Assembly (NCBI GenBank): GCA_903889245.1
Contig: CAISWQ010000047.1
Coordinates: forward strand, 51,546-115,545
Source: an uncultured Lentisphaerota bacterium
Lineage (GTDB): Bacteria > Verrucomicrobiota > Kiritimatiellia > CAIQIC01
Direction: 5' to 3'
DNA length: 64,000 nt
The stretch's first letter is position 1. Each line of letters starts with the position of its first letter. The position numbers were made by a program, and so were the translations under genes. Positions 1 to 62,348 of this stretch are shown here, piece by piece. Under the pieces are notes generated by a model, which had not been told where the DNA came from, made no database searches, and worked only from the letters and a program-made list of their open reading frames with translations.

Positions 1-1028
1 TGCAACGTGCGAATGGCCACGTTGAACTGCGCGCGCTGGTTGGGCGCGAGGAAGCCGAGCGCGCCGGTGTAGATGCCGCGCGGCGCGGTTTCCAGTCCGG
101 CGATGATCTTCGCCGTCTGCACCTTGGGCGCGCCGGTGATCGAGGCGCAGGGGAATAGCGCGCGGAAAACCTCCGGCCAGCCGGCGCGCGTTTGCGCTGT
201 CACGGTCGAGGTCATCTGCCAGAGCGTGGCGTGCCGCTCGACGGCAAAAAGATTTTCGGTATGGACGCTGCCAGGCCGTGCAAGGCGGCCGAGATCGTTG
301 CGTACCATGTCCACGATCATGATGTTCTCGGCCCGGTTCTTGGCCGAGGTGCGCAGGTCTTCGGCGATGCGCTCATCCTCGGCCAGCATGAGGCCGCGTG
401 GGGCGGTGCCTTTCATCGGGCGGCAGACGATGCGCGTGCCATCGCGGCGGAAGAACAGCTCCGGCGAAAGCGAGCAGAGGGCGTGATCGCCAAGGTCGAG
501 GAAGGCACCGTAGCCCGTCTGACCATCGGCCAGCAACGTTGCGGCCAGCGCGCCGAAGTCACCGCGCCAGGGCGCGCGCAGGCGAAAGGAATAGTTCACC
601 TGATAGGTTTCGCCTGCGGCAATCTTGCGCCGGATCGCGGTGATGGCGCGGCGGAACGCTGTGGGCGTCACAGCGGCGCTCCAGGATTTTTCCAAGGCTT
701 GGAAAGCGGAGGGGGAGTTTTTTCCAAGGCTTGGAAAAGCTGGCCGCGCGCGCACGTGCCGGGCGCGATAAAGGCCGAACCACAGCAGCGGCAGCGGTCC
801 CGGCCGGCGCGTTTGCAAGGCGGGATCGAAGGCGGGCGCGGCCTCGTAGGCGAGGAAACCCGCGGCCCACCAACCGCGCTGCACGACGGCGGAAATCTCC
901 GCCAGTGCGGGGATGACTTCGGCAATGGCGCGCACGGCAATGATCCGGTCGGGTTGTTGAAATTCCAGCCAGCGCGATTTCCCGGAATCGGACTTCTCCT
1001 GAATCAAAACTTTAGGGACGAACGGCAT
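1..1028 (-). CDS. pabB: Aminodeoxychorismate synthase component I (chorismate-binding), 3' end runs off the window
   Basis: Not in the ORF track because it has no stop in the window. Manual translation from ATG 1028 gives MPFVPKVLIQ...GFLAYEAAPAFD...AGETYQVN...FRALFPCASITGAPK...RGIYTGALGF...QFNVAIRT, typical PabB/TrpE motifs. Confidence 0.9.
   Translation of the reverse strand, partial: MPFVPKVLIQEKSDSGKSRWLEFQQPDRIIAVRAIAEVIPALAEISAVVQRGWWAAGFLAYEAAPAFDPALQTRRPGPLPLLWFGLYRARHVRARPAFPSLGKNSPSAFQALEKSWSAAVTPTAFRRAITAIRRKIAAGETYQVNYSFRLRAPWRGDFGALAATLLADGQTGYGAFLDLGDHALCSLSPELFFRRDGTRIVCRPMKGTAPRGLMLAEDERIAEDLRTSAKNRAENIMIVDMVRNDLGRLARPGSVHTENLFAVERHATLWQMTSTVTAQTRAGWPEVFRALFPCASITGAPKVQTAKIIAGLETAPRGIYTGALGFLAPNQRAQFNVAIRTL
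687..738. repeat. Two copies of the TTTTCCAAGGCTTGGAAAA palindrome, 32 bp apart, inside pabB
   Basis: Read directly; translated in-frame as PAFPSLGKNSPSAFQALEKS. Confidence 0.9.
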
Positions 1029-2874: not shown

Positions 2875-2929
2875 TTTCCAAGGATTGGAAAAGCAAACGC
2901 CGCCTTTTCCAAGGTTTGGAAAAGGCGGC
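2875..2929. repeat. Two palindrome copies; the second is extended into a 14-bp hairpin, probable terminator of the thioredoxin gene
   Basis: GCCGCC-TTTTCCAA-GGT-TTGGAAAA-GGCGGC at 2899-2929; copies are 31 bp apart. Confidence 0.8.
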
Positions 2930-7953: not shown

Positions 7954-7971
7954 AGGTCACTCGCTCTCTGG

Positions 7972-8115
7972 TTTCCAGGGATTGGAACGGCGAACCGCCG
8001 GTTTTTCCGGGGATTGGAAAAAGTCGCGGGAAAATTTCCAAGCCTTGGAAAAACCCAGCCGGACTTCTTCCAAGCCTTGGAAAAAACCGGCGCAACTTTT
8101 CCAAGCCTTGGAAAA
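7972..8115. repeat. Array of 5 palindrome copies, period 31-32 bp
   Basis: TTGGAA half-sites start at 7982, 8014, 8045, 8077 and 8108; spacers are non-identical. Confidence 0.92.
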
Positions 8116-8169
8116 CGGCGGGGAATATAGCGGGTTGCCCCACGTCCCGCCAGTCAAAGCTGTGCCCGG

Positions 8170-9474
8170 TCAGGCAAAGTCTTCGATCCGCAGCCGGACG
8201 GTCGGCGCTCCGACGATGTCGAGTTGGTCAATCGCCGCCAGCGCCTGTTGGAAGGCTTGCTCCGGAGCCTCGTGTGTGACAATCACGACGGGGACGTGGT
8301 TGCCAATGGAGGATTCCTTCTGCATGACGGAGGCGATGCTGATTTGATGGGCGCCAAGTAGCTGGGCGACGCGGGCTAGCATGCCGGGCTTGTCGAGCAG
8401 GGCGAGGCGCAGGTAACAGCGCACCAACTCCGCGCCGGTCGCCTGCGCATGCAGGCCGGCCGAAGCCTGGCCTGGTAGTGCGAGCGGGTGGCTCGCGCCG
8501 GCGGCGCGGTCGCGGGCGACATCGGCGAGGTCGCTCAAGACCGCGCTGGCCGTCGCCTGGCGACCGGCCCCGCGGCCGAAGTACAGGGTCTGGCCGACAA
8601 GATCGCCCTCGATCAAGATGGCATTGAAGACGCCATCCACGGCAGCGAGCATGTGCTGCAACGGCACGAGGGTGGGGTGGACACGGACGGAAACGCCGCT
8701 GGCGCCGCGCTTGACGATGCCGAGCAGCTTGATGCGGTACCCCATTTCGAGCGCGTCGGTGATGTCCTCGGCGGCGAGGCCGCGGATGCCTTCGATATGC
8801 GCGGCTGCCAGCGGAACGGTGCTGCCGTAAGCCAGGCTCGCCAGGACGATGGCTTTATGCGCGGTGTCGTGCCCGTCAATGTCGAGACTCGGTTCGGCCT
8901 CGGCATAGCCGGCGGCCTGGGCGGCTTTCAGCACGGCGTCGAAGGGCAACTTCTCGCGTTCCATGCGGGTGAGGATGTAGTTGCAGGTGCCGTTGAGAAT
9001 GCCGTAGATGCTCTTGATGTGGTTGGCGACGAGCCCTTCGCGCAGGGCCTTGATGACCGGGATGCCGCCGCCGACGCTGGCCTCGAAATGGATCGGCGCA
9101 CCGGCCGCGGCCGAGGCGGAAAAAATCTCCGTTCCGTACTCGGCCAGCAGTTTCTTATTGGCGGTGACAACCGGTTTGCCGAGTTTCAACGCTTCCAGCA
9201 CAAACTTCTTCGCCATCCCCGTACCGCCAATGAGTTCAACGACCACATCCACGTTGGGGTCACGTACCACAGCCTCGGCATCGCGGGTCAATAAGGCCCG
9301 TTCCACCGTCACACCACGGTCGGTGTCCAGGTCGAGGTCGGCAATCTTGCGGAGCACCAGTTTGACGCCGAGACGTTCGGCCAGCAGGGCCCCGTTGCGT
9401 TGCAGTCCTTCCACCACGCCTGCGCCCGCCGTGCCGAAGCCGAGCAAACCGATACCGAGTTCTTTCGTTTTCAT
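8170..9474 (-). CDS. hom: Homoserine dehydrogenase with ACT domain
   Basis: GLLGFGTAG Rossmann motif, VVTANK, FEASVGGGIP, GILNGTCNYIL, DIDGHDTAHK; ATG 9474 (MKTKELG) chosen as start. Confidence 0.93.
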   Translation of the reverse strand: MKTKELGIGLLGFGTAGAGVVEGLQRNGALLAERLGVKLVLRKIADLDLDTDRGVTVERALLTRDAEAVVRDPNVDVVVELIGGTGMAKKFVLEALKLGKPVVTANKKLLAEYGTEIFSASAAAGAPIHFEASVGGGIPVIKALREGLVANHIKSIYGILNGTCNYILTRMEREKLPFDAVLKAAQAAGYAEAEPSLDIDGHDTAHKAIVLASLAYGSTVPLAAAHIEGIRGLAAEDITDALEMGYRIKLLGIVKRGASGVSVRVHPTLVPLQHMLAAVDGVFNAILIEGDLVGQTLYFGRGAGRQATASAVLSDLADVARDRAAGASHPLALPGQASAGLHAQATGAELVRCYLRLALLDKPGMLARVAQLLGAHQISIASVMQKESSIGNHVPVVIVTHEAPEQAFQQALAAIDQLDIVGAPTVRLRIEDFA

Positions 9475-21368: not shown

Positions 21369-21481
21369 TTTTCCAAGGATTGGAAACGGGAACCGCTGGT
21401 TTTTCCAGGGATTGGAGAATCTCACCGATAACTTTCCAGGGTCTGGAAAATTTCATCAGAATTTTTCCAAGGCTTGGAAAA
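21369..21481. repeat. Array of 4 palindrome copies
   Basis: Right half-sites at 21380, 21412, 21443 and 21474. Confidence 0.9.
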
Positions 21482-23138: not shown

Positions 23139-23408
23139 ATGAGCGAAGTGCTGCAGGATATCGGGTGGGCGATCGTGTTCGCGTTCGTCGGTGGACTCGT
23201 TGGCCTCGTCTTGGTAATGCTCGCGGCGGCGCTGCTGCCGCGGTTGATCGGGCGGTTCACGCCGCAGCTTGACGAGGAGAAGGAGATCGCGCGCGGCAAC
23301 GTGGCGGTCGGCCAGTACTTCGGCCGCGTCGTGGGCGCGAGCATCCTCGGCGTCAGCCTCATCATTGCCGCTGCCGTGCTCGGCGGCATCCTCGCGGCGC
23401 TGCACTGA
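23139..23408 (+). CDS. Small two-TM membrane protein, DUF350 (YjfL-like)
   Basis: Two hydrophobic helices flanking TPQLDEEKEIARGNVAVG; GGAG RBS; ends 2 bp before the Hint-Tim44 gene. Confidence 0.7.
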   Translation: MSEVLQDIGWAIVFAFVGGLVGLVLVMLAAALLPRLIGRFTPQLDEEKEIARGNVAVGQYFGRVVGASILGVSLIIAAAVLGGILAALH

Positions 23409-23410
23409 CC

Positions 23411-28952: not shown

Positions 28953-29000
28953 TTCCAAGGCTTGGAAAAAAGAGACTGCGATTTTCCAAGCCTTGGAAAA
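28953..29000. repeat. Two palindrome copies between convergent genes
   Basis: Right half-sites at 28962 and 28993. Confidence 0.85.
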
Positions 29001-30366: not shown

Positions 30367-32646
30367 TCACTCCACGCGCACCCAGCGGCGGCTCATGGTC
30401 GCGTCCTGTGCGTCCTGGCCCCCGGCGCGGGCGACGGCCTTCACAACGCACTCGCCCGCCGCCGCCGCCGGCACCGGCAGCGCCACGGCCAGCGTCTGCG
30501 AGCCGAGTTCGGCCAGCGCGAACGGCTGCTGCGCCTGCGCCAGCACCTGGCCGGCCTTGGTCTCCAGTGTCAGCGTCACCTGCCCGTGCAGCGGCCGCGC
30601 CTCGTCGTTGACCAGCATCACGGTGAAGTCGCGCACCGCGCCGGCCTTCAGCGTCGGCTGGAAGAAGTTGAGGTAGACGCCCAGCGGCTTGAACGCCTCG
30701 CCCATGTAGTCGGCGAAGGCGGGGTCGAGCTTGAGCGCCGTCACGTCGGCGAAGTGGTCCGCCGTGTAAACGCCGGGATAGCTGCACGTGAGGTAGACGA
30801 AGTGGATGATGCCCGCATACTGGCGGTGCGCGCGCCAGAATTCCGTCTTCGCGCCGAGCAGGTACGCATACAGGTCGAGCCGCTGGCGCGCGGTGACATT
30901 CGTGCCCATGAGTTGTGCGTAGACGTTCGCGGTCAGTAGCGTCGGTGTGCCATCACGGTTGAGCCAGAGCCAGCCGTATTCGTTGATGAGCACGGGATTC
31001 GTGTCCGAGGGCAGCCGGCCCTTGGGCGGCTTGCCGTCCATCGTCTCCAGCTTGGTCATGTCGAACGTCAGCTTGCCGCGGTAGCCGCTGCTCATCAGGT
31101 AGGGATGATGCTCGACCGGGTCGTTCGGCCCGGCGGGCTTGTTATAGCTGTTCTCCCACGCGCGGCCGGAGAGGTCGAGCCCGCGCACGGCGGGGATGAT
31201 CTTCGCGCCGAAGATGTCGTCCTTCGTCTCGTTGTTCGCGTCCCAGACCACGACGCTCGGATGGTTCCAGTTGTCGCGCATCCAGTCCTTATACTGGCGG
31301 ATCATCTCGTCGGCGTCGTGCGTGCGCGCATAGCCCTTGTACCAGCCGGGCCCGCCGGTCCAGACGAAGAACTCGTTCTGGATCAGCAGCCCGACCTCGT
31401 CGCAGATGTCGAGCCACTTGTCCGGCACCGGCCCGATGCAAAACCGGAAATAATTCCAGTGCATCTGCTTCGGCAGGTCGCCGAGCAGGCGGCGCACCCA
31501 GCCCTCGTCCCACGGCAGGGCCTGGCACAGCGGGTCCTCGAAGAAACGGTGCAGCGTGATGTTCGAGCCGCGCAGATAATAGACCTTGCCGTTGAGCCAG
31601 GCGCGCCGCGTCGCGGCGTCGAACCGGAACTCGCGCATCCCGAAGCGCGTCGTCACCTCGTCGCCGCGCGTGCGCGCGGTCAGCGTGTAGAGGAACGGGT
31701 CCTCCGGCGACCAGAGCCGGCAGTTCTTGATGGGCACGAGCACGTCCAGTTCCTTCACGCCGGCCTCGGCGTGGACCTTGGTTTCGCCCGCGAGCTGGCC
31801 GGACTTGGCCTCGCGAACCTCCAGCGCGACGCCCGTCGCTTGCGTGCCATCGAGATAGACGCGCACCTTCGCCTGCTGCTTGGCGATCTCCGGCGCGACC
31901 TGCACGGCCGCGATCAGCGGGCTATCGCAGCAGATCACCGACACGCTGTCGTAGATGCCCGGCGACCACTTGATCTTCTCGAAGTCCGAGCCGGTCGGGA
32001 ACGTGTCCGGCAGCACGGCCGGGTGCGCGCCGATGCGGATGACGAGCGTGTTCTCCGCGTTCCAGCGGATGGCCTTGCCCAGCGGGAAGAGGCCCGCCGT
32101 GAAGCAGCCCGCGTACTCGCCCAGCTTCTCGCCGTTGAGCCAGACCGCGGTACCGAACTGCGCCTTGTTGATCTTCAGCAGCGCCACTGCGCGCGCCGCC
32201 GGCGCCCGGAACGTCTTCCGGTACCAGAAATAGTTGCGGTCCTGGTCCACCTTGCCCGTCCAGTATTTTTGCAGCCAGTCCTCCGGCGCGAGCTTCGAGC
32301 GGATGCGGTTGGCCATGTTCTCGCGGCTGGTGAATTTATCCACGTCGGCGAACGCCGGCTGGGCCAGGTTCGCCAAGCCCGGCACCGGCACCGTGCGCGT
32401 GAACTCTGCCGGCGCTTGGTCGAGCTTGCCCTCGGCAATCTGCCACGGCCCGTCGAGCGCCATCACCTGCCGCGCCGCCTGCGTTTCCAGGGATTGGAAA
32501 AGCAGAACCGCGAAAATTCCAGCCGAGCTTGCGAGACGGGCAGCCTTGCTGCCAACCATTGGAAAAGTCAGACGCGAAATTTTCCAAGGCTTGGAACTTT
32601 TGTCGCGGTTTTTTCCAAGGCCTGGAAACCAGTACTTCGTTTTCAT
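30367..32646 (-). CDS. Secreted GH2-family glycoside hydrolase with repeat-derived N-terminus
   Basis: Sugar-binding domain, TRFGMREF, YLRGSN, DICDEVGLLIQNE, NHPSVVVWDANNE, INEYG; N-terminus FPGLGK..SKPWK..FPMVG..FQSLE. Confidence 0.8.
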   Translation of the reverse strand: MKTKYWFPGLGKNRDKSSKPWKISRLTFPMVGSKAARLASSAGIFAVLLFQSLETQAARQVMALDGPWQIAEGKLDQAPAEFTRTVPVPGLANLAQPAFADVDKFTSRENMANRIRSKLAPEDWLQKYWTGKVDQDRNYFWYRKTFRAPAARAVALLKINKAQFGTAVWLNGEKLGEYAGCFTAGLFPLGKAIRWNAENTLVIRIGAHPAVLPDTFPTGSDFEKIKWSPGIYDSVSVICCDSPLIAAVQVAPEIAKQQAKVRVYLDGTQATGVALEVREAKSGQLAGETKVHAEAGVKELDVLVPIKNCRLWSPEDPFLYTLTARTRGDEVTTRFGMREFRFDAATRRAWLNGKVYYLRGSNITLHRFFEDPLCQALPWDEGWVRRLLGDLPKQMHWNYFRFCIGPVPDKWLDICDEVGLLIQNEFFVWTGGPGWYKGYARTHDADEMIRQYKDWMRDNWNHPSVVVWDANNETKDDIFGAKIIPAVRGLDLSGRAWENSYNKPAGPNDPVEHHPYLMSSGYRGKLTFDMTKLETMDGKPPKGRLPSDTNPVLINEYGWLWLNRDGTPTLLTANVYAQLMGTNVTARQRLDLYAYLLGAKTEFWRAHRQYAGIIHFVYLTCSYPGVYTADHFADVTALKLDPAFADYMGEAFKPLGVYLNFFQPTLKAGAVRDFTVMLVNDEARPLHGQVTLTLETKAGQVLAQAQQPFALAELGSQTLAVALPVPAAAAGECVVKAVARAGGQDAQDATMSRRWVRVE
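32484..32628. repeat. Four palindrome copies within the GH2 signal-peptide coding region
   Basis: Right half-sites at 32494, 32559, 32591 and 32622 (spacing 65, 32, 31). Confidence 0.85.
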
Positions 32647-32679
32647 GTTGGCTCTCTTTCTCTTTTATCAAAGCCCACT

Positions 32680-32782
32680 GTAGGCCGGGTCTCCGACCCG
32701 GCGCTCTGTGCGCCCGGTGAAGTCACCGGGCCTACAACGCAAAGAAGACGGCCGTGTTGTAGGCCGCGTGACCTCACGCGGC
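32680..32782. repeat. GTAG-type REP/BIME-like cluster (3 units)
   Basis: GTAGGCCGGGTCTCCGACCCGGC; inverted GCCCGGTGAAGTCACCGGGCCTAC; GTAGGCCGCGTGACCTCACGCGGC. Confidence 0.85.
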
Positions 32783-32793
32783 GCATCGCTCAT

Positions 32794-34014
32794 CTATTTC
32801 GCAAGCCCAAGCCGGTGCTTTGCCCATAGCAGGTTGGCCAAGAGGCCGGGGCTGGATTTGATCCGGCCTTGGTTGGCGGCGATAAACACCGGCAACAGTT
32901 CCGGCTGAAATTCGCAGAGGTCAATCCAGCCGCCGCCGAGGCCGCCGGGCGGATGCTTGCCGGCGGTGCCATCCACACGGCCCAGGAATTTGTTCCCCGG
33001 CTGCAGTAGCACGCAACTGACGGTGTTGGCGAACGGGCGCATCTGGTCGGCGGTGAGGCCGTAGCGGCCGCTCACAAAGGCGCGCATCAGCCCGCCGATA
33101 TCATAGCCGCCATGGCCCGTGTCCTCGTAGTGCTTCGGCGGCTGCTCGAAGGCATAGGTCCACTTGTAGCACGGCTTGCCCTGCACCTCGTAGCGCTCCG
33201 CCGCCGCGAAGAACCAGTCCACCGACGCCTTCACGATGGCGTCGTAGCGTTGCACGCGCGCGTCGTCATCACCGAGCAGCCGGTGACATTCCGCGAGCCG
33301 TTGGAAGCCGTTATTGAGCATCGTCTGCTGGTTCCAAGGCACAGGCTGGTTGGCGGAACCGGGGCGGGAGGCAGCATCGTAGCGCGGCGAATCGGGCGTG
33401 TAGCAGCGCAGCGTGCCGGGCCGCACGTACCACTTGAGCAGGAAACCATCCAGCGTGCGCTCCAGCTCGTGCACATAGGTGACCGCGCGCTCGCGATAGG
33501 TCGTGCCGAAGCCATGCAGATTGCCGTCGGGAACTTTTTCCGCCCACAGTTTTTTGTTTTCCAGAATCAGCCGCGCCGCGTAGGCGATGTGGCCCACGAT
33601 GTCACCGTTCTCGGTGCCGGAGTAAGCCGCGTCCTTGGCATCGGCCGCCTTGTTCGGCCAGACCAGCTCGCGCGCGCCGGTCCAGATGAGCCGGCCGGTC
33701 TGCGGGTCGTTGCGCGCCGCCAGCATGCGGTCGGCGAATACGAGCATCCGGTCGAGCAGGGCCACGTCACCGCTGATCTCGTAGACGCGGCCGAGCGCCT
33801 CAGCCGCCTCGCCGCCCGCGCCATAGACGAACGCGTTGTGGAAATTGTTGGAAGGCGGCACGACCTCCGCCATGAAGTTCTTGAACGCCTGGATTTCGCG
33901 CGTCGTCACCGGCCCGGCGGAATTTTCCACGAGCATCGGCTCGACGGCTTCCACGGATTGGAAAAAGGCGAGAGTCAGAATTCCAAGGCGTGGAAGCCAG
34001 CGTCTTGTTTTCAT
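32794..34014 (-). CDS. Secreted hypothetical protein, possibly an alpha/alpha-toroid carbohydrate-active enzyme
   Basis: 406-aa ORF with typical codon usage; N-terminus MKTRRWLPRLGILTLAFFQSVEA contains two palindrome copies (33951-33996). Fold is a guess. Confidence 0.6.
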   Translation of the reverse strand: MKTRRWLPRLGILTLAFFQSVEAVEPMLVENSAGPVTTREIQAFKNFMAEVVPPSNNFHNAFVYGAGGEAAEALGRVYEISGDVALLDRMLVFADRMLAARNDPQTGRLIWTGARELVWPNKAADAKDAAYSGTENGDIVGHIAYAARLILENKKLWAEKVPDGNLHGFGTTYRERAVTYVHELERTLDGFLLKWYVRPGTLRCYTPDSPRYDAASRPGSANQPVPWNQQTMLNNGFQRLAECHRLLGDDDARVQRYDAIVKASVDWFFAAAERYEVQGKPCYKWTYAFEQPPKHYEDTGHGGYDIGGLMRAFVSGRYGLTADQMRPFANTVSCVLLQPGNKFLGRVDGTAGKHPPGGLGGGWIDLCEFQPELLPVFIAANQGRIKSSPGLLANLLWAKHRLGLAK

Positions 34015-34046
34015 GTTGGCTCTGTTTCTTCGCTGTTCAATTTGCT

Positions 34047-34191
34047 GTAGGCCGGGTCTCCGACCCGGCGCTCTGTTCGCCCGGTCAGAGACCGGGCCTA
34101 CAACCGGCGTCGCGTGAAACGCCCGGTGAGGTCACCGGGCCTACAACGAAAAGAAGATGGCCGTGTTGTAGGCCGCGTGACCTCACGCGGC
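34047..34191. repeat. GTAG-type REP/BIME-like cluster (4 units), near-direct repeat of 32680-32782
   Basis: Same units, order and linkers as the 32680 cluster, plus one extra unit. Confidence 0.85.
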
Positions 34192-34199
34192 GAGCATAA

Positions 34200-37127
34200 T
34201 CATCTTCCGGCTTGCGTGGCGACTTGCGGGCCGAGGCGCTGCTGGCGCGGGGTATAGTCGGGCCAGAGCGGGCAGTTCAGGTCGATCCAGCATTTCAGCG
34301 CGTGCATCTCGTCGCGCGTGAGCTGCACGCCGTGGTGGCCGGCGTCGAGCGTCTGCCAGAGCTTGCTCTTGAGCGTGCCAAACGTGAGCGGTTCGGCCTT
34401 CGCGTGGCGCAGGCGGTAGGTCATGTCGAAGTAGTGCACCCAGCCGCCGGCGATCAGCGTGCGGTAGGAGGCGGGGACCTTCTCGGCATCGAGCGTGCCG
34501 GCGAGGTTGAGCTTCTGCTTGTGGTTCGCGTCGTGGCAGCGCACACACCGCGCATCGAGCACCGGCTGCACGACGCGCTCGAAGCTGAACGGCACCGCGC
34601 CCCACGGCGGCGGCGCGAGCGTCGCTGGCGCGCACCGCGCAGCGAGGGTGGGGGCGACCGGCGCCGCGCCATGCCGGTGTTCGTGGCAGCCGATGCAGCT
34701 CCGCCGCTCGCCCGGCTGGAGCTGCACGACGCTGCGCATCCGCTGCAGCTCGTTCAGGTTTTCGTCGAGTGCCTCGAAGTAGAGGACCTTGCCGGCGGGC
34801 GCGGTGAAATTCGCCGAGCCATCGGCGGCGACTGGCGCGAGGCCGAGCGCCGCCTTCGCCACGTAGCTCGGCCAGCCGCCAGGCCCGCTGACCTTGTGGA
34901 TCGGCGTGGCATAAAAATCGGTGAACACCGGCCCGTGGTCGCGGCGAAACTCGCCGCTCGGCAGTTGCTCGAGGTTGGCGCGGACCTCCTCGCAGACGCG
35001 AATGAATTTCACGCGGCCGCGCGCAACGGCGGGCGCGAGGCCCTGATACACATCGGCCACGGTGAACTGCCCGAACTCCGTCGCCGCGGGTACGGCCGCG
35101 CCGAGCACCGGCGGACGCGGCACCTGGCGCAGCAGCGTCGGCGTCATACTGCCGATGTTCGGGTCGAGATAGAGCAACTCGCGGTTGCCCCAGCGGTCGG
35201 CGAGGAACAGGCCCCAGCGGTCGGCGGGCGCGTGGCTGGCGAGGAAGTAGTCGCGCGTGACCGGCACCGGATCGCGCCAGCATTCCTGCCGCGGCCAGCT
35301 CATGTTGTAGTGCGCCACGGTGTCCGGCGTGATGTTCAGCAGCGCGTTCGTGTCCGCCGGCGACTGCGCTCGCGCGAGGTCAATCAGGCCGAGCGGTCCG
35401 TTGTGGTCGCCGCCGTGCGAGAAGATGGTGCAGAGGATTTCGCGCGTGCCGGGCACCTCGCGGCCGTTGATGTAGCAGTTCGGCGTATCGTTGCCGAAGA
35501 CCAGCTCCGGGTGCGTGCCGTCGGGCCGGATCGCCCAGAGCGTGTGGCCGAAGTCCGCGCCCTTGTCGATGTATTCCGACCGCGTCCAGAGGATGCGCCC
35601 GTCGCGCATCACCGCCGGCGACCACTCGCTCAAGTTCGCGAACGAGAGCGGGCGGATGTCGCCGCTGGTCTCGCGGCGGAAGAGCACGAACGCCTGCGGC
35701 CGCCAGCACAGGAAGCGCGCGTGGCAGCGCGTGCTGATGAACGCAAGCGCGCCATCCGGAAGCGGGCACGGATAATAATCGTGGAACGGCCCCTCCGTGA
35801 GCTGGCGTGCGCGGCCGCCGCCGGAGTCCATTTCCATCAGGTGCCAGTAGGGCTCCTGCTCGCCGGGCCGTGGCGCGCTGGGGCGGAAGGCGAAGAAGAT
35901 TTTCTGCGCGTCGAAATCAGCCATCGCGTCGCGCGCGATGCCCGCGCTCGCGTCGAACAACGTCGCCAGCCGCGCGCCGGCCGGATCGAGCGCGCCCCCG
36001 CGCCGCGGCAGCTCCAGCACGCAGACGCCGCCGCCCGGCTTGAACTGCGAGTCCAGCACGTCGCTGTAGTTGTGCGACGAAAGGTAGGGATGCCGCTTCA
36101 CAAACAGGATGCGCTGCAACGACGCGAGGTCGGGGTCGGTGAAGAGCCACCGGCGCTTCGCCAGGCGCGCGTCGAGAAAGAGCGCCTCGCTGTCGCCCGC
36201 CGCCAGCCGCTGCTTCAGCCCCGCCAGTTCCGCACGACCGGCCGCGACCTCCACGCCCTTCTCCGCCAGCCGCGCGAGCAACTCGGCCAGTTGCGTCAGC
36301 GCGCGCTCTGTGGGCGTGAGGCGCGCGATGGCGCTCCAATAGGGGATCTCCTTCTTCAGCGGCGAGAGATGATCGGTCGCGTTCATCCGCTGCCACGTGG
36401 CGCGCTCGCACAGGAACGCGTAGCGCACGAGGCTCTCGTAGCTCGTCGGCTCCGGCAGCGGCACGATCGGCGGGCGCGGCACGGCGCGCGGCCCGCCCGC
36501 GAACCCTGCGTTCAGCGCCGCCACCTTGCGCCACGCCTTGCCATCGCCGGAGAGCTGCACCTCGATATTCATCGGCACGCGGTCGTGGAATTTCCCCTCG
36601 CGGTCACGCGAGAAGACGACCTTCGCGACCTGCGCCGGCTGCGGCAGCTCGATTTGCGCCCACTCATCGCCGGCCGACGCCGCAATCCAGCTATGCCCGT
36701 TCCCATACAGCCCATCGTTGAGGTGCGCCACCTGATGGATCGCGTAGCCCGCGAGGCATGAGGACGCCGAAGCCTTCGCGCCCGCACCCGCCAGCGCGAG
36801 GTTGCGCTTGCCATCGGCTCCGAAGATTTCCAGCTCATCAAGGCACGCCTGCCCCGCACTGCTTGCATGAATGACGAACCGCACGAACTTCGCCGGCTGC
36901 GCCGCAAAGCTAACCACATTCGCCGCCTCCGCCCGCACCACCACTTGCGTCGGTGCCGCGAAAGCTTCCAGAGCTTGGAAAACCAACAACCCCAAAATTC
37001 CAGCCGAGCTTGCGAGACAGGCCGTCTTGCTGCCAACCATTGGAAAAGTTAAGCATGAAATTTTCCAGGCCCTGGAAAATCCTGCCGGATTTTTCCCAAG
37101 CCTTGGAGCCTGGATACGTGCGTTCAT
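34200..37127 (-). CDS. Secreted discoidin (F5/8 type C) + beta-propeller + HzsA-like middle domain + di-heme cytochrome c protein
   Basis: HLNDGLYGNGHSW discoidin-like segment; YTRSEYIDK-type propeller motif (WTRSEYIDK); ADGSANFTAPAGKVLYFEALDEN..QRMRS..QPGERRSCIGCHE; second CVRCH motif. Confidence 0.7.
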   Translation of the reverse strand: MNARIQAPRLGKNPAGFSRAWKISCLTFPMVGSKTACLASSAGILGLLVFQALEAFAAPTQVVVRAEAANVVSFAAQPAKFVRFVIHASSAGQACLDELEIFGADGKRNLALAGAGAKASASSCLAGYAIHQVAHLNDGLYGNGHSWIAASAGDEWAQIELPQPAQVAKVVFSRDREGKFHDRVPMNIEVQLSGDGKAWRKVAALNAGFAGGPRAVPRPPIVPLPEPTSYESLVRYAFLCERATWQRMNATDHLSPLKKEIPYWSAIARLTPTERALTQLAELLARLAEKGVEVAAGRAELAGLKQRLAAGDSEALFLDARLAKRRWLFTDPDLASLQRILFVKRHPYLSSHNYSDVLDSQFKPGGGVCVLELPRRGGALDPAGARLATLFDASAGIARDAMADFDAQKIFFAFRPSAPRPGEQEPYWHLMEMDSGGGRARQLTEGPFHDYYPCPLPDGALAFISTRCHARFLCWRPQAFVLFRRETSGDIRPLSFANLSEWSPAVMRDGRILWTRSEYIDKGADFGHTLWAIRPDGTHPELVFGNDTPNCYINGREVPGTREILCTIFSHGGDHNGPLGLIDLARAQSPADTNALLNITPDTVAHYNMSWPRQECWRDPVPVTRDYFLASHAPADRWGLFLADRWGNRELLYLDPNIGSMTPTLLRQVPRPPVLGAAVPAATEFGQFTVADVYQGLAPAVARGRVKFIRVCEEVRANLEQLPSGEFRRDHGPVFTDFYATPIHKVSGPGGWPSYVAKAALGLAPVAADGSANFTAPAGKVLYFEALDENLNELQRMRSVVQLQPGERRSCIGCHEHRHGAAPVAPTLAARCAPATLAPPPWGAVPFSFERVVQPVLDARCVRCHDANHKQKLNLAGTLDAEKVPASYRTLIAGGWVHYFDMTYRLRHAKAEPLTFGTLKSKLWQTLDAGHHGVQLTRDEMHALKCWIDLNCPLWPDYTPRQQRLGPQVATQAGR
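36966..37107. repeat. Four palindrome copies within the signal-peptide coding region; cassette nearly identical to 32484-32628
   Basis: Right half-sites at 36975, 37040, 37072 and 37103; shared AAAATTCCAGCCGAGCTTGCGAGAC..CTTGCTGCCAACCATTGGAAAAGT. Confidence 0.85.
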
Positions 37128-37154: not shown

Positions 37155-38150
37155 CTAGCTGGACTTGGCATCGCGCCCGCGCGAGGCTCGGGTGCGAGAC
37201 AGTTTTGGGTCAGGCATATATTCTGCGGTCTTTTCCATCAGCATCATTTGACGCGATGGCTGCGTTTCCTCCGCACCATAGAGCGACTGAACGGTCTCCT
37301 CGAATTTTACCACCGCATTTTCATGGTGCTGGAGAAACCATTTCTTATGGTTCTCCAAATAGATCGTTCGCACGTCTGGTCGCCGCAAATCGAACGGCAC
37401 CCGTTCCATCCTTGGATCCACGCTGTCAAAACCGGAGAAATCCATCCCCAACCTGTCCTTGGTCCTGGCCACGTACGCGGGGTTGATCTCGATGCCGATG
37501 GCTTGCCGGTTGAGTTGTTGGCACACACGCAAGGTCGTTCCACTTCCTGAAAAAGGATCAACCACAAGATCGCCTTCGTCTGACGAAGCGAGAACCATCC
37601 GCTCAATCAAGCCTTCAGGTTTTTGCGTGGGATGGTCCTGCCGGTTTTCATTACAGTAATGTACATGGGAGAACTCCCAGACGTCGCCCGGATTGGCTCC
37701 GCGCATGTTGTTTCGGTCGCGGAAATACTTCTGTGGAACTCGGACGCTGTCCAGGTTGAACTTGAACTCCTCCGACCGGGTGAACATTAAAACGTCATCA
37801 TGTCGAGGGGAAAACCCTTTTGTCTTGCCCATGCCCTGCGTGTAGTGCCAGACAATCCAACTATTAAAAAACATTTGAAGATCACGATCGAGAATGTCGT
37901 ACAGATACGAAATGAACCTGAAACCCATGAACACATAGAGCGTCCCGGTTGGTTTGAGAATCCGATGAGTTTGACCCAGCCAGTTGCGCGAGAAGGCCAG
38001 ATACTCATCGAAACCTTGGACATCATGGTTATTCCCGTAGTCTTTTCCGAGATTGTATGGGGGATCGGCGACAACAAGATCAACCGATCCGGTCTTTAAC
38101 TTCGCAAGCTCCACCAGCGCGTCGCCGGCTATAATCTCAATGTTACTCAT
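37155..38150 (-). CDS. Beta-class N4C/N6A DNA methyltransferase (M.HpaI-like)
   Basis: ADPPYN (motif IV) precedes HPTQKP and DPFSGSGTT (motif I); lower GC than the flanks. Confidence 0.92.
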   Translation of the reverse strand: MSNIEIIAGDALVELAKLKTGSVDLVVADPPYNLGKDYGNNHDVQGFDEYLAFSRNWLGQTHRILKPTGTLYVFMGFRFISYLYDILDRDLQMFFNSWIVWHYTQGMGKTKGFSPRHDDVLMFTRSEEFKFNLDSVRVPQKYFRDRNNMRGANPGDVWEFSHVHYCNENRQDHPTQKPEGLIERMVLASSDEGDLVVDPFSGSGTTLRVCQQLNRQAIGIEINPAYVARTKDRLGMDFSGFDSVDPRMERVPFDLRRPDVRTIYLENHKKWFLQHHENAVVKFEETVQSLYGAEETQPSRQMMLMEKTAEYMPDPKLSRTRASRGRDAKSS

Positions 38151-38919
38151 CTACCTTGATCCATTCATTGGCCTGCGCCATTTCAAGCCATTCGCCAAAC
38201 CCCTTCTTTGAGCCGATGAACTTACGGTCAAGCAGTTGACAGAACTCCCATGTCGTCCTCTTGGTCAAGGTTACGTAGTGGATGTCCCGCACCTGAAGTT
38301 GGCCGCTGCCCAGCGCGGGGTTGTAGCTAAGATCGGCACTCGAGAGGTATTTCAAATCGTACGTGTTGTGCGCAACGACTTCCATGATGCCATCCATCAA
38401 GCCTGTCGTCGTATTCTTCGTGCAGTAGACTTTGTGCTTCAGAGACAGGATGATGAAGATGTAATCAGGATCATCGATATAGGCGGTACGAATCCGCTTG
38501 AAGGCTGTGATGTTTGGCGATTTTCCGCTCGACTCGATGTCTTCCGCTGTAGCTTTGACATCGACTTCTGCGGTCACGCCACTTTCGGTCTTCCGGGTCA
38601 TCTTGAATTGCAGAATGACATCGGCCATGTAAAGGCGTTCTTTAGCCTCGACGTTGATCAAAGCATATTTGTTGGTCTTGTCTTCTAGCACATCTTGGAA
38701 TGTCTCGACCGCCCACGCCTCCACAAATGGTCCTGCGATTTTGTTGATGTTTTCCATGGGCAAGCCAAGCTTCAGATTCGTGTTGATAATGATCTTGTTT
38801 TTACCCGCTCCAATAGCCGCCTTGATGATCGCTTCGATGGCTGTCGTGACGAAAGAAGAGCACGCGTCATAGTCGTCGCTTTGCTTGGGGACTTTGAATG
38901 TGAGGTTGTCGTATTTCAT
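38143..38919 (-). CDS. Type II restriction endonuclease, HpaI-like (predicted GTTAAC)
   Basis: IIINTNLKLGLPMENINKIAGP, VDVKAT, SGKSPNIT, YNPALGSGQ and KRTTW closely match my recollection of R.HpaI; overlaps the MTase start. Assignment is from memory, not a search. Confidence 0.7.
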   Translation of the reverse strand: MKYDNLTFKVPKQSDDYDACSSFVTTAIEAIIKAAIGAGKNKIIINTNLKLGLPMENINKIAGPFVEAWAVETFQDVLEDKTNKYALINVEAKERLYMADVILQFKMTRKTESGVTAEVDVKATAEDIESSGKSPNITAFKRIRTAYIDDPDYIFIILSLKHKVYCTKNTTTGLMDGIMEVVAHNTYDLKYLSSADLSYNPALGSGQLQVRDIHYVTLTKRTTWEFCQLLDRKFIGSKKGFGEWLEMAQANEWIKVDE

Positions 38920-39029
38920 GGACAATCACTCCGTGCCGTTTGCTCTTCATCTACGCATCTTGGGGCTCGCGCCCACGAGCGAAGGCAGTCTAGGGAGAAC
39001 GGTTTGTGTTGCAAGTGCAAAGCTGGTGT

Positions 39030-41607: not shown

Positions 41608-41692
41608 TTTTTCCAAGGCTTGGAAATTATTTCCACATTTTTCCCAAGGCTTGGAAAAACATGAGGTTGCCGTTTTCAATCCTTGGAAAAAA
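41608..41692. repeat. Three palindrome copies upstream of the glycosidase
   Basis: Right half-sites at 41620, 41651 and 41683. Confidence 0.85.
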
Positions 41693-47510: not shown

Positions 47511-47621
47511 TTTCCATGGATTGGAATGCCATGCCCCCGGATTTTCCAAGCCTTGGAAAAAATCAGCCGCCGTTTTCCGGGGCTTGGAAAAATTCCTGCG
47601 TCATTTTCCAAGGCTTGGAAA
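47511..47621. repeat. Array of 4 palindrome copies
   Basis: Right half-sites at 47521, 47553, 47584 and 47615. Confidence 0.9.
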
Positions 47622-52861: not shown

Positions 52862-53899
52862 TTATTTCCTCCCGAGTTTCATGGGTACGACCACGGGCGC
52901 GGCGACGTCGCCGGCAAGCGCAAGCAGCAGGCGCGACGCGGTCTGCAAGGTCAGGTCGCCGCTCTTCACGCGCCCGATGGCGGCGGCGGTGAAGTCCTTC
53001 ACCTGCTCCGGCGTGCCGCAGCGCCGTGCGGCGAGCAGCCACAGGTCGGGCGTGATGCGCGGCGCGGTCCCGAACTGGCGGCGCAGGTTGTCCCACAGCT
53101 TCGGCGGCGGCGGATCGATCGTGAGCGCGAGATAAATGTTGGCGACGCCGTCGGGGTAGGGCTTCTCGAACGTCCGCACTTTCGGCGACTGGCCTTGCGC
53201 CCATGCGAAATGGCCCTGCTCGGGCAGCCAGAATTTCGCGATGGCAGTGCTGATGCGCGCCACCAGCGCGCGGCAGCGTTCCGCCTGCTCGCGCGCGCCG
53301 AGCGCCTCGAACAGCCGCGCGCCATCGAGCAGGCCAATGCAGACATCCACGTTGTCCATCGGATACTTGTAGAGGTGCGGCGTGGAGGACCACGTCAGGT
53401 CATCGGCGGGATCGAGCGCGGACTCGATGGCGTGCAGCGCCTGCCCGGCGCGCTTGAGCAGTTCGGCGGCGGGCAGACCCTCGGGCTGTGCCTCGCGATA
53501 GATCCGCAGCGCGCTCAAGTATGTCGGCGGATAGACGTCGATTGCCTTGCGCTTGGGCGAAGGTTTGTAATCCCGCCGCGTGCCGAGGAAGTCGGGAATG
53601 TTGCCATCGGCGCGCTGGTGGGCGGCGTACCAGTCGAGCCAGCGCTTCACGCGCACCAGGTCCTCCGGTTGCGGCTCGAGCCGGTGCGCAACGATCAGCG
53701 CGCCTGCCGCCACATTCCCGAAGTAGGGCCAGATACGCACCACGTCGCCGGTGCAGCTGACGCGGAACGCGCCGTCGGGCAGTTGCGTCTGGCGGATGAA
53801 GTCGCGGCACTGCCGGATCGCCTCCAGCGACGCGGCATCGGGCGCGGCCTGGCCGCTGACCGACAAAAGCAGAAGAATCATCAGAATGAATCGGCTCAT
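52862..53899 (-). CDS. Secreted hypothetical protein (possible alpha/alpha toroid)
   Basis: Signal peptide MSRFILMILLLLSVSGQA; coupled to both neighbours. Confidence 0.6.
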   Translation of the reverse strand: MSRFILMILLLLSVSGQAAPDAASLEAIRQCRDFIRQTQLPDGAFRVSCTGDVVRIWPYFGNVAAGALIVAHRLEPQPEDLVRVKRWLDWYAAHQRADGNIPDFLGTRRDYKPSPKRKAIDVYPPTYLSALRIYREAQPEGLPAAELLKRAGQALHAIESALDPADDLTWSSTPHLYKYPMDNVDVCIGLLDGARLFEALGAREQAERCRALVARISTAIAKFWLPEQGHFAWAQGQSPKVRTFEKPYPDGVANIYLALTIDPPPPKLWDNLRRQFGTAPRITPDLWLLAARRCGTPEQVKDFTAAAIGRVKSGDLTLQTASRLLLALAGDVAAPVVVPMKLGRK

Positions 53900-56154
53900 G
53901 GTTTTCCATCCGGCTTGTTGTTGCCGGCCGCATCCTGCGCACGGATGGCGGCGACCCAAATCTGGCTATCGCCGCCGCCAAAACCGATGTGTTGCAGAGC
54001 GCGACTGTGGTCGAGGGACTCCGGCGGGATACGGAAGCGCAGCGTGTCCCACTGCGGTTTGCGCGAGAGCGGCTGCTCCGGGCGCACGGGAATCCAGACC
54101 TTCTGCCGCGTGTTGATGGAGATGGTTTGCAACTGCGACTCGCCCCAGACATCCATCTCGAGCAACAGCGGCTTGGTGCGGTCGGCGGCCATGACGTGGA
54201 AGGTCGCCCAGCCATTGGCCTTGTCGCCCGGCCCGGTCTCGTCGGAATTCCAGCAGCGCCGGCCGCCCTTCATTTCCGCTTCGCCAAAACTGCTGTTAGC
54301 CACGCCCAGTTGCGCGCCTGTCTTCCAGCTCTTCACATAGTCGGCCGCTTCGCGCACGTTGCAGAAGGTGAGCGCCTTTTGGCCGGCCGCCTGCGCGGCC
54401 TCCCGGCAGGCCGGATCGCCGGTAGCCGCGAACCGGGCTTCCTGCTCGAAGCCTTCGATCATCCAGTAGCCATAGCGGAAGGTCTGCGCCACGCCGGCCA
54501 CGTGCTGCGCGGCGGTCGCGTCGCCGCCGGCCAGTTGCCGGGCGCGCTCCAGCGCGGCCAACGCGCGGTCGAGGCTCGCCTTCTCAAAGAGGCCGGCCGC
54601 CTGCGTGCGCGGATTGTCGCTATAGGCCCGGCCGGTCCGGCGCACGGCCGTCTCGATGGCGTCATAGAATTCCGTCATGGCCGGCGCCGCCGCTCCGAAC
54701 ATCCCCGCGATCCATTCGCGCGCGCACGCCTCCGGGTCGGCGGCCGGGTCCCACAGCAGCTTCGCGATGACGTAGTAAAGCGGGCCATCGAGCGGCCAGT
54801 CGTTGAGCGAGCTCTGGCAGTAGTAGCGCCGCACGCCGAGCGCGTGCAGGTATTTGATGTCGGCGGCGAACGTGTGCAGCACCGGGCGCGGCAGGCGCCA
54901 CCACATGGATTTGCTGACGTAGCTATAGATCATCAAGTCCGGCGTCAATCGCGTCCAGCGCTTGAGCAACTGGTTGAACTGCGCGTTGGCCGCCGAGGCG
55001 GGATCGTTGATCGCGCGGCTGTAGTCCGCCGGCGCGTAGTGGCAGAGGAACGGCACGACGTTCGGCCCGGGCCGGACCGTGTCGGGCGGCTCCGCATAAT
55101 TGATGTAGGCCAGCACCAGCAACTTTTTGTCGGGACATGTCTGCGCCACGCGGCCGGCCACCTCGTTGGCAAACCAGAACACGCGGTCGCCCATGAACGG
55201 CTTCTCCTTCGCGAGCCCCTGGCTGGTCGCGCGCGCGCCGCAGAGTTTTTTGTCGAGCGCCAGACACGCCTCGCACTCGCACCACCCGCCATCATCGTTG
55301 GGGCTGATGGAAAGCATGGGCGCGCCGGGATCCTCGGCAAAGGCCCGGACGACGTTCGCGGCGAACTCGTCGGCCAGGCCCGGCGCGGTCACGCAGAGCT
55401 GGTTGTGGGACTCGGTGGACGGCATCCGTTTGCCATCGAGGAGCGGATACCAGGCGGGGTGCGCCGCGAAGTAGCGCTTGGCCGGGATGATTTGGTGATA
55501 GGCGTGGACGCCATGAATGCTCCGCGGCCAGAAGGCGCACGCGCCGTTCGAGGCGGCGGACTCCGCCGCGTAGAAACCGTTCAGCCCGAGCTTCTGGCCC
55601 CAGCGCTCGTTGCCCGTCTTGTGCGTCGAAAACAAACGCCACGCGAACGCCGGCTGCGTATCGACGTGGAACGGCTCCACGTTGATGGTCTCCCGCTGCG
55701 GGACGAGTTCGTCCTCCGGCGTCAGCCAGCGGCAGCCGAGCGTTTCCAAAAACCGGTAGACGCCGAACAGACTTCCCCGCTCGCCGCCGCCGCAGATCGT
55801 TACGCCGTCCGGCCCGGCCGCGAGCCACACGCGCTCGTCGCCGCCGAAGTCCGTGGGTAGTTGCCGGCGCGCGGCCTGCGTCAAGCCCACGTCGATGCGC
55901 GCTCCATTGATGGGCATGCCTTCCTGAACGATGGGCAGCCTGGCGTGCGACATCCGCTCCAGATACGCGCCCAATTCCTGCGCTGCCACGCGCACCGTCG
56001 CCGAGGCCTCCGCCGGCACCACGATGGTGGCGCGCGCCTCGCTGTTTTCCACGAGGGTCACCGCCTGCGCGCCCACGGCCAGCGCGCAAACCAGCGCCAG
56101 CGTTTCCAAGCCTTGGAAAAAACTGCGCGGTTGGATGATGACAAAGAGTTTCAT
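53896..56154 (-). CDS. Secreted DUF4838-domain protein (GH20/GH67-like N-terminus)
   Basis: GSLFGVYRFLETLGCRW, SISPNDDGGWCEC, LAYINYAEPP; signal peptide contains FFQGLET from a palindrome copy at 56103-56122. Confidence 0.65.
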   Translation of the reverse strand: MKLFVIIQPRSFFQGLETLALVCALAVGAQAVTLVENSEARATIVVPAEASATVRVAAQELGAYLERMSHARLPIVQEGMPINGARIDVGLTQAARRQLPTDFGGDERVWLAAGPDGVTICGGGERGSLFGVYRFLETLGCRWLTPEDELVPQRETINVEPFHVDTQPAFAWRLFSTHKTGNERWGQKLGLNGFYAAESAASNGACAFWPRSIHGVHAYHQIIPAKRYFAAHPAWYPLLDGKRMPSTESHNQLCVTAPGLADEFAANVVRAFAEDPGAPMLSISPNDDGGWCECEACLALDKKLCGARATSQGLAKEKPFMGDRVFWFANEVAGRVAQTCPDKKLLVLAYINYAEPPDTVRPGPNVVPFLCHYAPADYSRAINDPASAANAQFNQLLKRWTRLTPDLMIYSYVSKSMWWRLPRPVLHTFAADIKYLHALGVRRYYCQSSLNDWPLDGPLYYVIAKLLWDPAADPEACAREWIAGMFGAAAPAMTEFYDAIETAVRRTGRAYSDNPRTQAAGLFEKASLDRALAALERARQLAGGDATAAQHVAGVAQTFRYGYWMIEGFEQEARFAATGDPACREAAQAAGQKALTFCNVREAADYVKSWKTGAQLGVANSSFGEAEMKGGRRCWNSDETGPGDKANGWATFHVMAADRTKPLLLEMDVWGESQLQTISINTRQKVWIPVRPEQPLSRKPQWDTLRFRIPPESLDHSRALQHIGFGGGDSQIWVAAIRAQDAAGNNKPDGKP

Positions 56155-62253: not shown

Positions 62254-62348
62254 GCGGTCACTACAGCGCAGCAGGGGTGGTTCGTCAAGGCGGAGATTTC
62301 CCCGCTTGCTTTTTCGGGGTGGACGGCTACTCTCTGCCGCGACGAAGC

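Follow-up and report, generated by a model that had tools for sequence, protein, structure and literature searches.

Can a short palindromic repeat that lies mostly between genes also be read as protein, and act there as an export signal? The question is raised by a 64,000-nucleotide (nt) stretch of contig CAISWQ010000047.1 from an uncultured Lentisphaerota bacterium (hereafter the window; G+C 64.9%), in which arrays of a 19-bp palindrome (ttTTCCAAGSCTTGGAAaa; the unit) encode the N-termini of four secreted-enzyme genes: three neighbours, for a GH2 glycoside hydrolase, a 406-amino-acid (aa) protein and a 975-aa protein, plus a DUF4838 gene. The leaders of these proteins are probably array-encoded signal peptides of Sec type, a reading that draws on the position of signal peptides in homologues and from which we infer export itself.

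The arrays and the N-termini of four secreted enzymes

With one mismatch at most allowed, TTCCANGNNNTGGAA matched the window 68 times, both strands counted, against 0.97 matches expected from shuffles, and the 68 matches cluster into 13 arrays of 1-5 units each with 31/32-bp spacing. Neighbouring units were 31 or 32 bp apart in 143 of 151 cases, a period of ~three helical turns, and the 12-13-bp spacers between them are mutually unrelated. Stop codons are absent from the 19-bp unit in all frames; in the sense direction it reads F-P-x-L-G-(K), S-K-P-W-K or F-Q-x-L-E, and translation of the units thus confirmed the three frames proposed by an earlier, sequence-only reading of the window. The N-terminal peptides quoted there were also exact: MKTKYWFPGLGKNRDKSSKPWKISRLTFPMVGSKAARLASSAGIFAVLLFQSLETQA for GH2, MNARIQAPRLGKNPAGFSRAWKISCLTFPMVGSKTACLASSAGILGLLVFQALEAFA for the 975-aa protein (HZS_alpha/F5_F8), MKTRRWLPRLGILTLAFFQSVEA for the 406-aa protein and FFQGLET for the DUF4838 protein. 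The array-encoded leader peptides include MKTKYWFPGLGK. The genes and their leaders are as follows (a slash marks the putative cleavage point).

30367..32646, minus: GH2 glycoside hydrolase gene, 759 aa from the first ATG; Pfam Glyco_hydro_2 and Glyco_hydro_2_C
32476..32646, minus: GH2 leader, 57 codons, array-encoded, ending TQA/A
32613-32627 and 32582-32596, minus: intact units of the GH2 leader, the first two after the start codon
32550-32564 and 32517-32531, minus: halves of the split GH2 unit, interrupted by a 33-nt piece
32523..32555, minus: the 33-nt (11-codon) piece VGSKAARLASS in GH2, inside one unit, boundaries ambiguous by a base or two
32557-32559, minus: internal alternative ATG of GH2 (MVGSK)
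32485-32499, minus: proximal unit of the GH2 leader (FQSLE), then TQA/A
32794..34014, minus: gene of the 406-aa secreted protein, family unknown
33946-34014, minus: 406-aa leader, 23 codons, two units and the spacer between them (ILTLAF)
33981-33995 (LPRLG) and 33949-33963 (FQSVE), minus: units of the 406-aa leader
34200..37127, minus: gene of the 975-aa HZS_alpha / F5_F8_type_C protein
36957-37127, minus: 975-aa leader, 57 codons, array-encoded, ending AFA/A
37094-37108, 37063-37077 and, proximal, 36966-36980 (FQALE), minus: units of the 975-aa leader
37031-37045 and 36998-37012, minus: split unit of the 975-aa leader, with the 33-nt piece (37004-37036) inside
37038-37040, minus: internal ATG of the 975-aa gene
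53896..56154, minus: DUF4838 protein gene, 31-codon leader at 56062-56154
56104-56118, minus: single DUF4838 unit (FQGLE), inside the leader and ahead of its hydrophobic core

N-termini were compared with those of homologues for the GH2, 975-aa and 406-aa proteins. The GH2 homologues read (716-804 aa) carry an ordinary signal peptide ending a few residues before a conserved xSLDGxWQ, those of the 975-aa protein carry ordinary signal peptides before a conserved ..FPAxxARFVRxVIH, and those of the 406-aa protein all have signal peptides ending ..A/AEPMxVE. These homologue signal peptides (18-35 aa) end directly before the conserved mature N-terminus, at the point where the window arrays end. Because the sole hydrophobic stretch of the window proteins upstream of the conserved mature points lies inside the array, at the position of the homologues' signal peptide, the array reads as the signal peptide. 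Moreover, the two-unit leader survives at the protein level in 406-aa orthologues of 74-84% identity, as MKTxxxLLPSLGLLALxxFQGxATARA/AEPM; their DNA units are partly decayed and the 32-nt spacing is unchanged. Comparison with relatives, suggested earlier as a check, thus came out in favour of array-encoded leaders on both counts.

The leaders were scored with a simple heuristic of hydrophobicity, charge and residues -3/-1. By this measure the n-region is basic (+1 to +9 net ahead of the hydrophobic core, varying with leader and start codon), the best 10-residue Kyte-Doolittle mean is 1.9-2.7 (2.1-2.7 in the homologues' ordinary signal peptides), and small residues occupy -3/-1 in TQA/A (GH2), AFA/A (975-aa), VEA/V (406-aa) and AQA/V (DUF4838). 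The predicted mature proteins would begin at A58 in GH2 (ARQVMALDG..) and in the 975-aa protein (APTQVVVR..) and at V24 in the 406-aa protein (VEPMLVEN..). The last unit had been proposed to precede an A-x-A-like cleavage site, and indeed FQxLE is followed by x-x-A, with small -3/-1 residues in all four leaders. The idea that a hydrophobic spacer supplies the h-region stood in part: spacers contribute, as do degenerate units, but consensus units do not. A lipoprotein was rejected on the absence of a lipobox from the leaders, and a twin-arginine translocation (Tat) signal on the absence of a twin arginine before the core in the four leaders.

In the mechanism we propose, a start codon upstream of or within the array of the four genes would cause the array to be translated as a Sec-type signal peptide. 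Lys/Arg codons of unit flanks and spacers would make the n-region basic; the hydrophobic core would come from a unit's 'LG' half together with the spacer after it, or from a degenerate split unit; and the gene-proximal unit (FQxLE) would form the cleavage region with the x-x-A that follows it.

It is very improbable that these arrays are untranslated, with true starts downstream and the long open reading frames (ORFs) mere accidental upstream extensions. Such extensions are common in high-GC DNA free of stop codons, and the explanation holds for other window arrays (those of the genes at 39030, 45783 and 20417 and of aspartokinase) and for most read-through cases in other genomes. Met residues also follow the arrays in GH2 (..RQVMALDG) and the 406-aa gene (..VEPMLVEN), and the earlier remark that no in-frame ATG is evident between FPMVG and the mature domains needs correction. 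However, both Met residues align with internal conserved residues of the homologues' mature protein, and the post-array ATGs are therefore not alternative starts. In addition, each homologue family examined is secreted with its signal peptide exactly at the array position, other hydrophobic segments are absent, and the 406-aa orthologues conserve the two-unit leader as protein.

Start codons and constraint within the leaders

In both GH2 and the 975-aa gene the first ATG lies 19 nt before the first unit, and an internal ATG lies within the split unit (MVGSK). A Shine-Dalgarno (SD)-like GAGAG or AGGTG stands 7-8 nt before the first ATGs, and no SD-like sequence stands before the internal ATG. 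The two upstream units total exactly 63 nt, and the frame is open from the first ATG in both genes. Contigs of related metagenome sequence (L070, L071, L073 and L077) were compared; L071 is syntenic with the window over 30.8-36.9 kb. The first ATGs of the L071 and L077 GH2 genes are preceded by AAGGAG or AAGGTGA (AAGGAG 7-8 nt upstream in L077), and the L071 start lies 14 nt after the previous stop codon. These two leaders need their upstream part because, without the MVGSK piece, they would otherwise have no basic n-region.

On this evidence we lean towards translation from the first ATG. A start at the internal ATG, with the two upstream units as 5' untranslated region (UTR) and the signal peptide drawn from the split unit, the spacer and the proximal unit, is possible but not probable. 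In the short forms it yields, the n-region is normal (+1 or +2) and the hydrophobic core spans 13-16 residues, with TQA/A or AFA/A, and arrays in most other genomes end just upstream of the true start codon. Other genomes show no general enrichment of an ATG at a fixed distance upstream of units. An internal start is opposed by the missing SD-like sequence, by the L071 and L077 GH2 leaders, which lack the 33-nt piece, and by the 63 nt of upstream units that keep the frame open in both genes.

Several observations weigh against translated leaders or against their start at the first ATG. With that start the n-regions of GH2 and of the 975-aa protein would be unusually long, at 37-40 residues; the internal ATG yields a conventional 28-aa signal peptide and is the start used by the public gene call of the 975-aa gene (946 aa). 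In L071, no in-frame ATG, GTG or TTG stands close before the array of the 406-aa orthologue. If transcribed, arrays fold strongly (z = -2.9 and -5.5), and such folding could hinder translation initiation. The constancy of the FQxLE frame is weak statistics because only about four independent leader lineages were examined, and the scoring heuristic is a simple one. Between the two ATGs the choice is immaterial to the signal peptide, which is array-encoded whichever is used.

When the GH2 leaders of the window, L071 and L077 are compared, the difference is 8% in unit columns and 16-26% in spacer columns; the GH2 gene bodies of the window and of L071/L077 are ~36% different. Differences in the leaders fall evenly over the codon positions (9, 10 and 9 of 49), and the L071-L077 GH2 bodies show the usual third-position excess (9%, 6%, 25%). 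By these comparisons the constraint in the leader appears to act at the DNA level. Signal peptides tolerate nearly any sequence provided that charge, hydrophobicity and small -3/-1 residues are kept, so palindromes can stay intact in leaders.

Exchange of leader pieces between genes

The near-identical cassette that had been reported in the GH2 and 975-aa leaders is real: 32513-32596 and 36994-37077 agree at 73 of 84 positions (87%), compared with a mean of 46% and a maximum of 75% for unit-anchored 84-mers elsewhere in the window. The second interval had been placed one base out of register (36993-37076), where only 30 of 84 positions agree. Eight leaders were aligned for the analysis of this cassette. 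Its 33-nt piece, GTTGGCAGCAAGGCyGCCCGkCTCGCAAGCTCGG, interrupts a unit mid-way (TTCCAATG[33 nt]CTGGAA) and occurs in one shared frame (VGSKAARLASS) in four leaders, drawn from three genomes: window GH2, the window 975-aa gene, and the 275-aa genes of L071 and L077. It is also present, in a different frame, in an L070 esterase gene. The four-unit GH2 leaders of L071 and L077, homologous in other respects, lack it; a metagenome scan with the piece returned one locus, L071. The 975-aa leader looks chimeric, its upstream part resembling the GH2 type and its downstream part the 275-aa type (xFAA), and the leader of the 275-aa gene is the apparent source of the piece. The L071 orthologue of the 975-aa gene lacks its 5' end, where the contig stops. 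The 275-aa gene, of unknown family, lies between the 406-aa orthologue and GH2 (L071 2936-3760; L077 ~7385-8211) and is missing from the window; the protein had no Pfam match in L071 or L077.

The GH2 gene itself is a mosaic. Its body belongs to paralogue group A (window, L070 and L073; the mature part has 79% identity to the proteins of L070 and L073); group B (L071, L077 and L075; ~855 aa) is 47-55% identical to group A. The leader and first ~100 nt of the mature region of the window gene are 84-89% identical to group B (L071/L077). Downstream of these ~100 nt, sliding identity is 85-95% to L070/L073 but 60-65% to L071/L077. True group-A orthologues have a different leader, with a GTG start within another palindromic repeat (MEGRAPSRPLRL..), and keep a unit in the cleavage region (FQSLE or CQGWE). 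No array motif was found among the other 119 GH2 homologues listed. The breakpoint and the modules upstream of the leaders are:

32365..32395, minus: recombination breakpoint in the mature GH2 coding region, near 32380; group-B-like upstream, group-A-like downstream
32640..32785, minus: GH2 upstream module, with a cluster of GTAG-type repetitive extragenic palindromic (REP) hairpins, 5' UTR and ATGAAAA; direct repeats D1, D2 and D4
34008..34192, minus: 406-aa upstream module, a copy of 32640-32785

The upstream modules of GH2 and the 406-aa gene (145-185 nt) are 95-98% identical, and in L075 a module of 5' UTR and leader is common to a 406-type gene and a GH2 gene of group B. The GH2 protein is present in identical form on 9 contigs, which argues against an assembly artefact, and an assembly chimera was rejected as the source of the mosaic on that ground.

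That recombination shuffles leaders among genes, as first suggested by the sequence-only reading, was borne out by the chimeric GH2 gene, the shared 33-nt piece and the duplicated upstream modules. These sequence comparisons indicate that recombination has moved leader pieces between unrelated genes, and we infer that the array units themselves were crossover points. Leaders and upstream modules of different genes have stretches of homology in common, array units included, and in coding arrays only in-frame changes (33 nt, or two units of 63 nt in all) would survive.

A period that is not a multiple of three in recombinogenic arrays might equally make the coding arrays phase-variation switches, in which gain or loss of one 31/32-bp unit shifts the frame and toggles secreted enzymes. 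We hold this to be scarcely credible: no length polymorphism was seen, the identical GH2 protein recurs on 9 contigs, and the differences seen among relatives (33 nt; two units of 63 nt) preserve the frame.

The GTAG-type REP hairpins constitute a second repeat family (CTGTAGGCCGGGTCTCCGACCCGGCG and CGCCCGGTGAxGTCACCGGGCCTACAAC), arranged as inverted pairs at 32673-32785 and 34040-34192; their clusters occupy the gaps between the GH2, 406-aa and 975-aa genes, and the two clusters are 96-98% identical. In L070 and L073 a GTG start and the n-region MEGRAxSRPLRL come from another palindromic repeat (GTGGAGGGACGCGC..GCGTCC), as a leader common to adjacent, unrelated esterase and GH2 genes for secreted enzymes (L070 1160-1300 and 2540-2640; L073 7415 and 8719). 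Leaders that derive from a repeat and are shared between genes are thus seen a second time. Directly upstream of the 975-aa gene lie an N6_N4 DNA methyltransferase gene and an overlapping 258-260-aa gene (37155-38925), which may be an inserted restriction-modification-like pair; the ATG of the 975-aa gene follows the methyltransferase stop codon by ~28 nt, and the pair is missing from the list of ORFs with high G+C at third codon positions (GC3).

Arrays outside leaders and the role of the unit

Elsewhere in the window the arrays lie as follows.

690..736, minus: two-unit array in frame in a pabB-like (aminodeoxychorismate synthase) gene, encoding FPSLGKNSPSAFQALEK
2876..2921, minus: two-unit array upstream of thiC, before a promoter-like TTGACT-16-TAGTTT and then a thiamine pyrophosphate (TPP) riboswitch (2728-2817)
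7973..8113, minus: five-unit non-coding array ending 20 nt before the aspartokinase ATG (7953), separated from the ORF by a stop codon
15733..15842, plus: degenerate array of four units, upstream of the gene (start 15916) for a cytoplasmic pyridine-nucleotide disulphide oxidoreductase
21371..21479, minus: four-unit array filling the gap between GH1 and metallophosphoesterase genes
28953..28998, no strand: two-unit array in the convergent gap between the 3' ends of GFO_IDH_MocA and PAS-domain genes
41611..41688, minus: non-coding array of three units, its end 17 nt short of the ATG for a secreted 854-aa protein
47512..47620, minus: four-unit non-coding array upstream of a 527-aa protein

Most window arrays thus stand at or just upstream of a gene start, with one in a convergent gap and one intragenic. 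The latter sits in a linker before the chorismate-binding domain of the pabB-like enzyme, which is cytoplasmic. The 854-aa and 527-aa proteins have signal peptides of their own (MKKQIAGFAVLLGAALAA, an ordinary one, and MKQISTLLLLAVLPAAA, respectively), as does the metallophosphoesterase, downstream of its array.

Other genomes were scanned, one per species, for two exact units 16-17 bp apart. The scan found at least 69 loci in at least nine metagenome-assembled genomes (MAGs), labelled by their submitters as Verrucomicrobia, Lentisphaerae, Kiritimatiellae or uncultured bacterium. A protein search with the 58-aa leader, in an index that demands three shared 5-mers, returned no match. For 75 loci plus the window, the coding status of arrays was assigned by GC3-based ORF classification: no coding-like ORF reads 71 of 94 arrays, 22 fall in the first 100 codons of such an ORF (most of these with a clear start codon after the array) and 1 lies deep inside an ORF. 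Since the arrays are mostly non-coding, stand ahead of cytoplasmic genes and a tRNA promoter, and occur inside pabB, use of the repeat in signal peptides is secondary. The view of the repeat as a portable export signal is therefore right in that arrays encode signal peptides at the positions seen in homologues, though export is not their primary role.

With riboswitches or tRNAs as anchors, some arrays are placed upstream of the -35 box: those of thiC (window and L021) and of an L009 tRNA gene. For others, the distance from array end to start codon is 3-25 nt. The thiC, L021 and L009 promoters were read by eye from the sequence, and scans for consensus sigma-70 promoters around arrays found none. 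The unit centres of the window thiC array fall at ~-61 and -92 from the inferred transcription start, and in L021, from another genome, the array at 4745-4791 likewise precedes a TPP riboswitch. At thiC the distal unit (2897-2931, minus) is extended to a 16-bp stem with a T-rich run, terminator-like, an isolated case. A variant of the unit, TTCCAATCCnTGGAA, is mostly the gene-proximal one in the arrays at 2876, 7973, 21371, 32485, 33949 and 47512; this TCC-type end unit faces the downstream gene in 8 of 10 units in the window and is rare in other sampled genomes.

Our best guess for the primary role of the arrays is that they are phased sites for a candidate conserved dimeric DNA-binding protein. 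Several features point to a protein-binding element: i) phasing at three helical turns is strict; ii) the spacers are unrelated; iii) the core is exact across several MAGs; iv) units are more conserved than spacers. The heterogeneous contexts, an intragenic copy among them, favour a spreading element akin to REPs or miniature transposable elements with inverted repeats (MITEs). In two genomes the promoter of the thiC riboswitch has an array ahead of it, though the offsets differ; UTRs, coding sequence or a convergent gap hold other arrays, and the genes downstream of arrays are functionally unrelated. The signal-peptide conclusion is independent of the primary role.

We think it somewhat unlikely that the unit is a selfish or neutral REP/MITE-like repeat in permissive DNA, passively present in signal peptides and of no function to the host. 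Insertion 5' of unrelated genes, in the convergent gap and in frame inside pabB would fit such a repeat, as would the apparent want of a coherent regulon, positions relative to promoters that range from ~-44 to -121 and extend into UTR and coding sequence, and the precedents cited below. However, the strict 31-32-bp spacing with unrelated spacers is unlike tandem duplication or independent insertion, the 15-bp core and the spacing are identical in MAGs labelled Verrucomicrobia, Kiritimatiellae and Lentisphaerae, the units are more conserved than the spacers, the TCC-type end unit faces the downstream gene in 8 of 10 units in the window, and the unit bears neither GTAG nor CGTC tags. Action as RNA, in which hairpins in the 5' UTR or early coding region would serve mRNA stability or translation and couple translation rate to export in secreted-protein genes, is improbable. 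Many arrays do end 3-40 nt before the start codon, their predicted folds are far more stable than those of shuffled controls, and the end units are polar; but compensatory variation and pairing beyond the fixed 19-bp palindrome are both absent, no Rfam family matches, and the thiC (two genomes) and tRNA arrays are probably not transcribed with the gene because they lie upstream of the -35 box.

Further searches and candidates concerned the nature of the arrays. Spacers flanking a unit are complementary only in the TT/AA flanks, that is, not beyond the 19-bp palindrome, and a longer RNA or single-stranded-DNA hairpin around the units was rejected for lack of that complementarity. Rfam holds no family matching the arrays, and literature searches for the unit sequence and related descriptions returned nothing specific to the array. 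Repeats of clustered regularly interspaced short palindromic repeats (CRISPR) are 23-47 bp long, with spacers of similar length. The arrays share with them short palindromic repeats, a constant period and unrelated spacers, but there are many arrays per 64 kb and they stand at gene starts; a CRISPR array was rejected since a 19-bp palindrome, 12-13-bp spacers and 1-5 units do not fit in size.

Two other features of the window were noted: a flavin mononucleotide (FMN) riboswitch (62347-62506, plus) ahead of a gene for 3,4-dihydroxy-2-butanone 4-phosphate (DHBP) synthase / GTP cyclohydrolase II, and, at 23273-25975, a ~850-900-aa protein with Hint/intein-like and Tim44-like Pfam matches in the public annotation of the same contig.

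The broadest account, which we put forward only tentatively and rate as rather unlikely when taken whole, is of an undescribed protein-bound cis-element spread across the Planctomycetes-Verrucomicrobia-Chlamydiae (PVC) bacteria that in this lineage doubles as code for Sec signal peptides; its arrays, all homologous to one another, would act as recombination joints and carry whole 5' modules (hairpins upstream, UTR, start codon and signal peptide) between unrelated genes for carbohydrate-active enzymes (CAZymes). Should this hold, secretion in bacteria would have an equivalent of exon shuffling, and a single sequence would serve both regulation and export.

In-frame palindromic repeats are already known. 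Copies of the Rickettsia palindromic element (RPE) and of other MITEs and REPs are fused in frame to genes in Rickettsia and elsewhere, and the Yersinia palindromic (YPAL)/RU-2 element is reported to make up part of the predicted signal peptide of YPO1552 (review PMC2229807); REPs also occur at ORF N-termini (PMC3733652). Like RPE, YPAL and REP, the present unit is a mostly intergenic palindromic element that also occurs in frame within genes (here the four leaders and the pabB-like gene) and is open in several frames, and like RPE and YPAL it can supply a hydrophobic or signal-peptide segment. RPEs and MITEs, however, are 100-170-bp elements with terminal inverted repeats, whereas here a 19-bp palindrome forms phased 31-32-bp arrays with variable spacers; unlike with RPE and YPAL, the proteins concerned here are conserved enzymes with homologues that carry ordinary signal peptides, and whole leader modules are exchanged between genes. 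REPs and bacterial interspersed mosaic elements (BIMEs) carry GTAG or CGTC at one end of a 20-40-nt imperfect palindrome and lie mostly downstream of genes, between unidirectional or convergent ORFs; the unit has neither tag, and its arrays lie mostly at or upstream of gene starts. New here, then, are the type of element, its use in conserved secreted enzymes and the exchange of leader modules.

Two further systems invite comparison. The vlp/vsp lipoprotein genes of Mycoplasma join conserved cassettes of 5' UTR plus signal peptide to divergent mature parts. The present leaders resemble them in a near-identical upstream region, start codon and signal peptide placed on divergent mature parts and maintained by recombination; unlike those paralogous surface antigens, the enzymes here are unrelated, and a palindromic repeat found genome-wide underlies the sequence they share. 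NrdR boxes, from the comparative work of Rodionov and Gelfand, are reportedly tandem palindromic operators ~31-32 bp apart. The arrays are similar in that palindromic sites stand ~three helical turns apart near gene 5' ends, but NrdR serves one small regulon from fixed promoter positions, whereas the arrays reach five units, precede unrelated genes at variable positions and are translatable.

The predicted secretomes and CAZymes of abundant uncultured Verrucomicrobia will be inconsistent because gene callers disagree on starts, as between starts of the 759-aa and the 946-aa style. The leaders described here would be a clear natural case of one short DNA under two constraints, as palindrome array and as working signal peptide, and would document modular exchange of export leaders and upstream regions between unrelated enzymes.

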